From NCBI GenBank assembly GCA_024137785.1, contig JAHRHZ010000268.1, positions 33,768,590 to 33,832,589 of the forward strand: a stretch of 64,000 nucleotides of DNA. The letters are read 5' to 3'. Under the pieces are notes generated by a model. The model saw only the letters and a program-made list of their open reading frames with translations. It ran no database searches and had not been told where the DNA came from. Within the stretch, counting starts at the first letter, position 1, and every line of letters starts with the position of its first letter. Positions 3,998-5,284 of this stretch are shown in pieces. Both the position numbers and the translations under genes were made by a program. The DNA comes from Ginglymostoma cirratum (taxonomy: Eukaryota).

Positions 3998-4039
3998 CTT
4001 CAAAAATAAATAATTGAAACCAATAATCATCTAACATCA

Positions 4040-4254
4040 TGTAGAGCTGGATGAACACAGCAGGCTAAGCAGCATCAGAGGAGCAGGAAAGCTGACGTTT
4101 CGGGCCTAGACCCTTCTTCAGAAAATGATTTTCCGAAGAAGGGTCTAGGCCCGAAACTTCAGCTTTCCTGCTCCTCTAATGGTGCTTGGCCTGCTGCGTT
4201 CATCCAGCTCTACACCTTGTTATCTCAGATTCTCCAACATCGGCAGTTCCTACT
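4040..4254. mobile_element. Penelope-like pLTR fold-back (hairpin) insertion with 14-bp TSD
   Basis: Inverted arms gtagagctggatgaacacagcagg...cccttcttcag / ccgaagaagggtctaggcccgaaac...ccagctctacac. Direct repeat atcatctaacatca at 4026-4039 and 4255-4268. Confidence 0.85.
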
Positions 4255-5284
4255 ATCATCTAACATCAAGCGATTTTAATAATGGTCAACTGAGATAGTA
4301 AATCCTGTCCATTTAATAAATTCATTAAAATGAGTTGGATGGACTATAGTTAATTTCTATATTTTTTGTATGTTTGTGTTGGAAAGAAAACTACTGTAGT
4401 AGAAGCACTAGCAAAAAATGCATTTTTATTAATATTATTTCACTAAACATTTTCAGGTACCGTAGGATATTTGTTGGGTATACTGATTATTGTTTTCAAC
4501 AGAAACAAAAGCTGATGTAGAACCAAACCACTCTACAGTGTATGTGAACAATTTTCAGGAATCGAAGGCCGTTGGATTTTGAAGCTCTGTGCCATGAGTA
4601 CATTGCTACCTTATGGAATTAATATGTTAAATTCCCTTTTAATGAATCGCTGTATTACTGAAGTCTCTGCCATTTGCACCTTGAGATGATAAAGTTAAAT
4701 AATGGTAATCTCCAATTAGACCTTGACTTTAATGCCCTGAAAGAAATTCCAAATGTTACAATTAGATTTTTCTTAATGCAGGGATGTGTTTTGCTTGTTT
4801 AGCATTTTATTTATGCATTGGTCTCATTCGGCATTGGTATTTAAAGCAGAATTAAACCAGAAGTGAAGTAATTACTGTCATGACATTGTTCACTTTTTTT
4901 TCATTCAATTTATTTAAATGTTTCTCTGCTGTTTCTTTATCTGGTTCCTTCAGTAAGCTAGGCTATCTGTGCCCTATGTTCTTTTCCCCCTTCAACAATT
5001 ATAGGTTAATGTTGGAACAATGTAATGATAAACTAGTTGTCTATGTTTTATGTTTTAAAGTAAATCTGTGGATTTTTTCTATGATAAATGTAGATATTTG
5101 TAATCAATCTGTTCAGACATGAACTGTTACACTTCTGGAGCAGGATCATTAGGCTTCAGCAACTTACATTGTTGCTTGTTATCTCATATATAGAATATTT
5201 AATTGTCTCCTTAGGAAATCTAACAATTACAGCAGCTTGTTTCAGGTGGAGATGATGAAGGATTTGCTAAAGAAATAAGTTGGA

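Follow-up and report, generated by a model that had tools for sequence, protein, structure and literature searches.

Head-to-head insertions of a Penelope-like terminal repeat in a shark genome, and two-ended priming as their probable origin

Four short inverted repeats lie in a 64,000-nt stretch of the Ginglymostoma cirratum genome (contig JAHRHZ010000268.1, positions 33,768,590 to 33,832,589; hereafter the window). Each is built from two opposed copies of the terminal repeat of one Penelope-like element (PLE). How does a retroelement come to leave two facing copies of its own end at one site, and do the resulting hairpins spread by themselves? Each hairpin is an insertion of two short opposed copies of the terminal repeat, and we think it probable that it arose independently at its own site, with both cut DNA ends serving as primers for reverse transcription.

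The insertions in the window and their parent element

The four inserts (E1, 4040-4254; E2, 13557-13742; E3, 44853-45037; E4, 52723-52964) were found where the preliminary description had placed them, with the arm order that it had given: an antisense copy, then a sense copy, of the terminal repeat located at 52190-52290. The arms measure 95, 67, 67, and 105 nt in E1 to E4, respectively, and are 90-96% complementary. In each element, one arm carries a 34-nt tail and the other does not. The flanking direct repeats of 14, 15, and 16 bp described for E1, E3, and E4 are exact. The flanks of E2 yielded no direct repeat; the best match, 7 bp, is located within the element. Eight further copies in the window are single-arm or longer. 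Positions within the repeat are numbered with the hammerhead C3 as +1, and the 5' pile-up site is described below.

4026..4039, plus strand: E1 target-site duplication, left copy, 14 bp, exact repeat
4040..4127, minus strand: E1 left arm, antisense terminal repeat, short end at about +82, 5' end at the pile-up site
4090..4126, minus strand: intact minimal type-I hammerhead motif in the E1 left arm, the sole intact one in E1 to E4, with core, bulged A, 4-bp stem II, palindromic ACGU, and short stem I, as in extracts of PMC4209133
4128..4254, plus strand: E1 right arm, sense terminal repeat and tail; hammerhead core with two mutated positions
4255..4268, plus strand: E1 target-site duplication, right copy, 14 bp, exact repeat
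8634..8780, minus strand: single-arm copy with short end
10279..10415, minus strand: tailed single-arm copy that reaches the 5' pile-up site
13557..13742: E2 head-to-head insert with non-nested arms, the tailed one on the left from +31 and the short one on the right from +7
15086..15174, plus strand: single-arm copy with short end
29786..29880, minus strand: single-arm copy with short end
43919..44053, plus strand: tailed single-arm copy that reaches the 5' pile-up site
44838..45052: E3 with its 15-bp duplication (exact copies at 44838-44852 and 45038-45052); short arm on the left from +8, tailed arm on the right from +26
51785..52290, plus strand: 5'-truncated PLE copy with the last ~30 ORF codons, a pyrimidine-rich 3' region, the terminal repeat, and a short end
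52707..52980: E4 with its 16-bp duplication (exact copies at 52707-52722 and 52965-52980); left arm tailed, 21-nt junction insert, both arms reaching the 5' pile-up site
55374..55418, minus strand: very short single-arm copy
57805..58290, minus strand: 5'-truncated PLE copy with tail

A fifth head-to-head insert in the window (42765-42993) is older and comes from a related repeat family; its arms are 82% complementary, only its right side has a tail-like extension, and its flanking 16-bp repeat is at 88% identity. A different inverted-repeat structure at 5001-5506 does not belong to the family of the terminal repeat; it is 75-79% complementary, with exact 11-bp direct repeats 495 bp apart. No host gene was identified in the window. 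Pfam matched one of the 95 long open frames scanned (214 were found), a reverse transcriptase (RT) fragment of another retroelement at 37650-38048 (RVT_1, E 4e-06, under the curated cut-off). Short repeats of another family, present at very high copy number, occupy 49053-49268 and 49865-50103; we take these to be SINE-like.

The identity of the parent element comes from longer copies in the same 4.36-Gb genome, which contain more than 1 kb of additional sequence upstream of the repeat. At locus L037, a 413-aa open frame upstream of the repeat contains RT motifs (YIDD), a CX4CxxC linker (CNRRKCYTC), and a GIY-YIG-like domain whose core has an internal CxxC; its Atlas neighbours (score 0.96) carry HTH_animal, GIY-YIG, and RVT_1. 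At locus L024, the repeat runs through its tail into a 214-aa open frame, and the join between tail and ORF start has 2,281 exact matches in the genome. Since the repeat continues past its tail into this shared frame, it is also present at the 5' end of the element, with both of its 3' ends just ahead of the ORF start. An RT with a C-terminal GIY-YIG domain is thus linked to a repeat that stands ahead of the ORF as well as at the 3' end, the arrangement of an EN+ PLE. Traits that are optional in this class occur as well: the 34-nt tail, an inverted 5'-truncated copy, and target-site duplications of variable length. These frames and neighbours support the PLE origin of the arms. The claim that 51785-52290 holds the end of a GIY-YIG-type ORF stands in part: the last ~30 codons are there, but Pfam gives no match, and the RT and GIY-YIG assignments derive from the longer copies rather than from this one. 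Pfam likewise had no match for any of three PLE protein pieces, and PDB returned two weak, unrelated matches only. In extracts of PMC8557442, the Neptune and Nematis clades are distinguished by a CX2-5CxxC motif located between RT and EN, and the sequence of the parent element reads as that of a PLE with a Neptune/Nematis-type linker.

Among loci L199-L240, there was no single full-length PLE copy. Same-strand chimeras recur in this set (L213, L214, L217, L222, L223, L224, L227, L228, L236, L238, and L240), in which the 5' repeat, the tail, and ~90-160 nt of the ORF start are fused to a 3' terminal piece. They point to template jumping or else to a third start site, which would lie ~240-290 nt from the 5' end.

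Abundance, polarity, and target-site duplications

Exact matches to a 14-base motif from the repeat number 132,108 in the genome. Pairs of the motif in head-to-head orientation with a gap of 40-135 nt number at least 8,583 (2652 + 4202 + 1729), where arithmetic from the motif count gives about 80-100 by chance; tail-to-tail pairs with a gap of 60-140 nt number 51. Of 67 sampled copies, 32 have the motif in exact form; scaling up from this gives rough estimates of 280,000 for all copies and 37,000 for short head-to-head inserts, with some of the inserts counted twice across N runs. Among 109 copies in 493,911 non-N bases, 14 head-to-head pairs were found; this sample was not picked by structure, and 14 of its 75 loci were picked because the motif was present. 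In the sample placed at random, 304,943 of 600,000 bases were N.

For the structural comparisons, we collected 114 pairs, of which seven were excluded as overlap duplicates (L149 wrongly so) and nine of the remaining 107 because they lay at locus edges or N runs. Most of the resulting 98 elements had been selected by the exact-motif pattern with a 40-135 nt gap. A flanking repeat of at least 10 bp accompanies 67 of the 98, compared with 1 of 400 mismatched flank pairs. Its length ranges from 10 to 19 bp with a mode of 14 bp, and falls between 13 and 16 bp in 53 of the 98. The 31 elements without a duplication of at least 10 bp include E1, which the scoring window scored as 9 although its duplication is 14 bp. 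Single copies have a flanking repeat of at least 10 bp in 17 of 78 cases, against 1 of 200 controls. The ends of the inserts vary by ~5 nt either way. In 59 elements, the first bases of the duplication matched the continuation of the template for 2.0 nt at the tail end and 1.5 nt at the short end, with control values of 0.37 and 0.32, respectively.

In a related organism (organism B, run X5, ~4% divergent), one contig runs straight from 44840 to 45041; 185 + 15 bases are absent, and one of the two 15-bp copies is kept. Because this empty site retains a single copy, the repeat at E3 is a true target-site duplication. Orthologous empty sites were a check that the preliminary description had named; the result for E3 rests on one contig from one run. 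Among the pieces listed for the E4 site, no contig bridged it.

At L002, L003, L013, L019, and L033, the head-to-head inserts have long arms of 430-1,220 bp. They too have one tail each, and three of the five have duplications of 14-16 bp. Since they follow the same rules, the short inserts without an element body, which we call stubs, are the short end of a continuum. At L138, L247/L248, and L255/L256, N runs of 400 bases are flanked by near-identical hairpin halves whose centres mirror each other; the assembly seems to break at young hairpins.

Arm structure, the 5' stop, and the origin of the hairpins

The repeat has two 3' ends, at +94 and +128, and both appear as piles of loose ends in contigs from three further organisms (A, B, and C). 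Single copies use the two about equally (45 tailed, 50 short). In contrast to the even odds of independent ends, 89 of the 98 head-to-head elements combine exactly one tailed and one short arm (p = 1e-17 against 0.5). The nine others include six with two tails, three of which are 5' ends that contain ORF sequence.

The 5' ends of copies pile up at -7 to -1, about 4 nt upstream of the hammerhead core. This is the end point of 32 of 69 copies at risk, or 0.066 per nt, compared with 0.0013-0.0025 further upstream. Copies that run on into the ORF start show the same end: 10 of 27 begin at -1 to -4, and four reach upstream. The site reads CCATTTC, which fits the initiator consensus YYANWYY. In extracts of PMC2377424, transcription of Drosophila Penelope starts inside its pLTR. 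From the sequence pattern, the 5' stop is likely to be the 5' end of the RNA, and the short arms would be run-off products of priming in the 5' repeat. Non-templated bases at the stop, among which a cap-derived G was sought, were G in 9 of 21 cases; the G in the recurrent junction described below derives from a templated C of the other arm.

PLE origin, polarity, the asymmetry of a single tail, duplications of ~14 bp, non-nested arms, and the sharp 5' stop are direct observations. A staggered double cut of ~14 nt, two-ended priming, run-off, and end-joining would account for them as follows. The PLE protein, probably as a dimer, would cleave the two target strands ~14 nt apart. Priming by one DNA end would begin at the outer start site, that of the tail, and priming by the other end at the inner site, which is 34 nt further upstream, with 1-3 nt of pairing as an aid. 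These start sites would also lie within the 5' repeat, ~100 and 130 nt from the RNA 5' end, so that both cDNAs would run off early. The two cDNA ends would then be trimmed and joined by end-joining repair, and gap filling would yield the duplication.

A variant of this mechanism keeps the two primed ends and attributes the pile-up at -4 to a polymerase that stalls at the C-rich tract or at hammerhead stem I after priming at the 3' repeat of the RNA. The C-rich tract does begin directly upstream of the -4 site. Arms that stop at -4 at many loci often have a T run of 4-7, compared with 3 in all 18 long copies, and this lengthening suggests slippage at the end of the RNA or cDNA, as a stall might produce. 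However, 37 of the 69 copies at risk pass the site, and later stops are rare. The start of 10 of the 27 ORF-reaching copies at this same position, its initiator-like sequence, and the pLTR-internal start of Drosophila Penelope also point away from a stall, which we regard as unlikely.

Alternatively, a single cDNA or antisense template could fold back and be copied, a self-priming route that was proposed for the inverted arm of rotifer Penelope elements (extracts of PMC3846280). Head-to-head polarity is what folding back predicts, arms differ less within elements (6.3%) than between them (8.2%), and 62 of the 89 one-tailed elements are compatible with a short arm contained in the tailed arm. 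However, in 27 of the 89, E2 and E3 among them, the short arm extends at least 10 nt further 5' than the tailed arm; the reverse was found in 28, as independent stops predict. In those 27 elements, each arm has sequence that the other lacks, and simple fold-back copying therefore fails. A copied arm would also have no reason to stop at the inner start site.

The two arms of an element may also differ in sequence type. At subfamily sites outside CpG, they are discordant in 9 of 67 elements at a C/A site, where background transversions amount to 1.5%, and in 3 of 47 at an indel. Discordance at two or more sites was found in 14 of 69 elements, including L167, with 2.2 expected from the background, and such arms also speak against fold-back copying. 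Independent draws would give 23.8 and 9.7 discordant elements at the C/A site and the indel, respectively, more than observed, and within one subfamily discordance is still below independence (11 vs. 16.0, and 5 vs. 12.3). Subfamilies active at different times could explain the marks that arms share. Later gene conversion could produce discordant arms, and some diagnostic sites are CpG-linked. By eye, none of the 100 listed matches to the recurrent junction was discordant at one site; 24 of 30 of these loci break at N runs. We infer that at least a sizeable minority of the elements drew on two different RNA molecules. Fold-back is refuted as the sole route, and we consider it improbable as the general explanation.

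The preliminary description had gone further and suggested a ribozyme-bearing, non-autonomous family. In a self-propagating form of this reading, MITE-like or retrozyme-like, the hairpin RNAs would themselves be reverse-transcribed and the hammerhead would process them. Such a family would leave many copies with the same junction and the same tail side in differing flanks, a pattern that we did not find. In 90 short elements, the junctions comprise 20 overlaps, 10 blunt joins, 30 with inserts of 1-7 nt, and 30 with longer inserts; element sequence is matched by 16 of these longer inserts, compared with 20% of shuffled ones. The E3 junction occurs once in the genome; this and the variety of junctions argue against a self-propagating family. 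One junction does recur, with 430 matches, but it is the one that two complete arms give. Among 30 of its loci, the six without gaps have the tail on the left in four and on the right in two, and represent two subfamilies. L122 and L125, 1.27 Mb apart on the same contig in opposite orientation, share a junction and a ~200-bp element at 94% identity in differing flanks. This one pair could be a copied or converted hairpin.

The hammerhead evidence bears on the same suggestion. The majority sequence of the repeat family has all sequence features of a minimal PLE hammerhead of type I: core, bulge, stem II, and palindromic 15.2-16.2. The motif is intact in 22 of the 98 elements, whereas 76 have no intact copy of it; one of the 98 has two intact motifs. 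Within the window, the description of the inserts as carrying hammerhead motifs holds for the minus-strand arm of E1, whereas the motifs of E2, E3, and E4 are truncated or mutated. An Rfam scan of the window detected no hammerhead family; its nine miRNA matches and one snoRNA match were all below the gathering score. If transcribed through, the inserts are predicted to form long RNA hairpins of 75-105 pairs (plus strand), and to this extent the prediction supports the proposed double-stranded RNA. In the folded E1 and E4 hairpins, the closing pair of hammerhead stem II has a predicted probability of 2e-19 or less, so folding is predicted to bury the hammerhead. Scars of A-to-I editing were not apparent: across the 98 elements, there was no significant A-to-G excess on one strand (61 vs. 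56 overall), and the best p value was 0.00035 in about 196 tests; the four window elements had no such scar. Hammerhead cleavage was considered as the origin of the 5' ends and rejected, since ends do not pile up at the cleavage site (2 of 84 at +26 to +31).

With a unique E3 junction, varied junctions, a variable tail side, and no intact hammerhead in 76 of 98 elements, the suggested family did not hold up, and we consider self-propagation very improbable. The hairpins are likely to be by-products of single landing events, not a ribozyme family that spreads by itself; taken as objects, they belong to a known class of dead insertions. In the two-ended account, the hammerhead is a passenger, mostly broken or buried.

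A DNA-transposon MITE, which size and inverted arms resemble, or an assembly artefact, which near-perfect copies at N runs and centres that sometimes disagree between sides might suggest, has a negligible probability and is refuted for the window copies: the arms are PLE sequence, duplications of 10-19 bp and varying ends replace a fixed short duplication with identical termini, the window contains no N, the E3 site exists empty, and antisense-to-sense joints occur in independent contigs of other organisms. The earlier reading of retro-insertion with long, variable duplications is supported.

Comparison with known systems

In L1 twin priming, both target strands prime and the inverted junction has microhomology; the inverted piece is the upstream, non-overlapping part of one RNA. 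In contrast, the arms of a stub are both copies of one segment, begun at two fixed start sites.

The layout of inverted repeat, one-sided tail, and duplication is already published and ordinary in kind. EN+ PLE units with an inverted pLTR, a one-sided tail of 30-40 bp, and a target-site duplication are in print (Pen2a_Av, PMC3846280; PMC8557442, Figure 2). Going by extracts of these papers, such units share with the stubs the head-to-head inverted, 5'-truncated copy, the one-sided tail, the duplication, and microhomology at the join. The stubs differ in having no body, in their size (~160-260 bp), in their number (tens of thousands by our estimate), and in duplications of about 14 bp, compared with 8-10 bp in the rotifer examples. 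Their non-nested arms argue against the published self-priming reading of the rotifer units.

Metazoan PLE hammerheads, as described in extracts of PMC4209133, have the same core, bulged nucleotide before stem II, G10.1-C11.1 pair, and palindromic 15.2-16.2 as the repeat, whereas most stub arms have lost the motif. In Schistosoma, opposite-strand hammerhead pairs lie 100-700 bp apart (same source). Opposite-strand copies in a stub presumably cannot make a dimeric ribozyme in one transcript. Non-LTR retrozymes (extracts of bioRxiv 10.64898/2026.07.22.740005) resemble stubs in being short, non-coding, derived from PLE repeats, and related to the hammerhead. They are head-to-tail tandem units with a ribozyme each, whereas stubs are single head-to-head events, of which 1 in 98 has two intact motifs.

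Our literature search, with Repbase and subscription papers outside its scope, turned up no paper that describes body-less head-to-head PLE stubs from sharks, and none that gives two-ended priming as their source. Extracts of PMC8557442 name the formation of tandem and inverted PLE structures as an open task. Stubs offer thousands of natural events with measurable rules: a stagger of ~14 nt, one tail, independent arm lengths, and a fixed 5' stop. More tentatively, they may be a genome-scale record of a dimer that cuts with a 14-nt stagger, uses one start site per end and two RNAs, and makes strong-stop-like cDNAs ending at the transcription start. If so, the two-ended model would replace the self-priming model of inverted pLTRs, thousands of complete hairpins would carry a back-to-back pair of initiator sites that could fire outwards, and 130-nt single copies could serve as SINE-like templates. 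For annotation, the hairpins mimic MITEs and microRNA precursors (the best Rfam matches in the window, below threshold, were miRNAs), and near-perfect copies are often found at N runs of the assembly.

The closest experimental counterpart is PAc, a Poseidon element of Anolis (extracts of PMC11167929). In vitro, both strands are cut and extended, two internal RT start sites bound the tail as in the stubs, and hammerhead cleavage is unneeded, with which the 5' ends of the stubs are in line; by analogy only, these results support the first steps of the proposed mechanism. The shark element has the CX2-5CxxC linker, which Poseidon, in these extracts, lacks. The first ATG of the N-terminal frame is downstream of the tail here and in hammerhead stem II in PAc, and the genomic ends of stubs differ from PAc in showing a primer-template match of 1-3 nt. 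As a record of mechanism, stubs are useful: from their shape come testable clues to PLE insertion, and their rules can be tested directly in this existing in vitro system.
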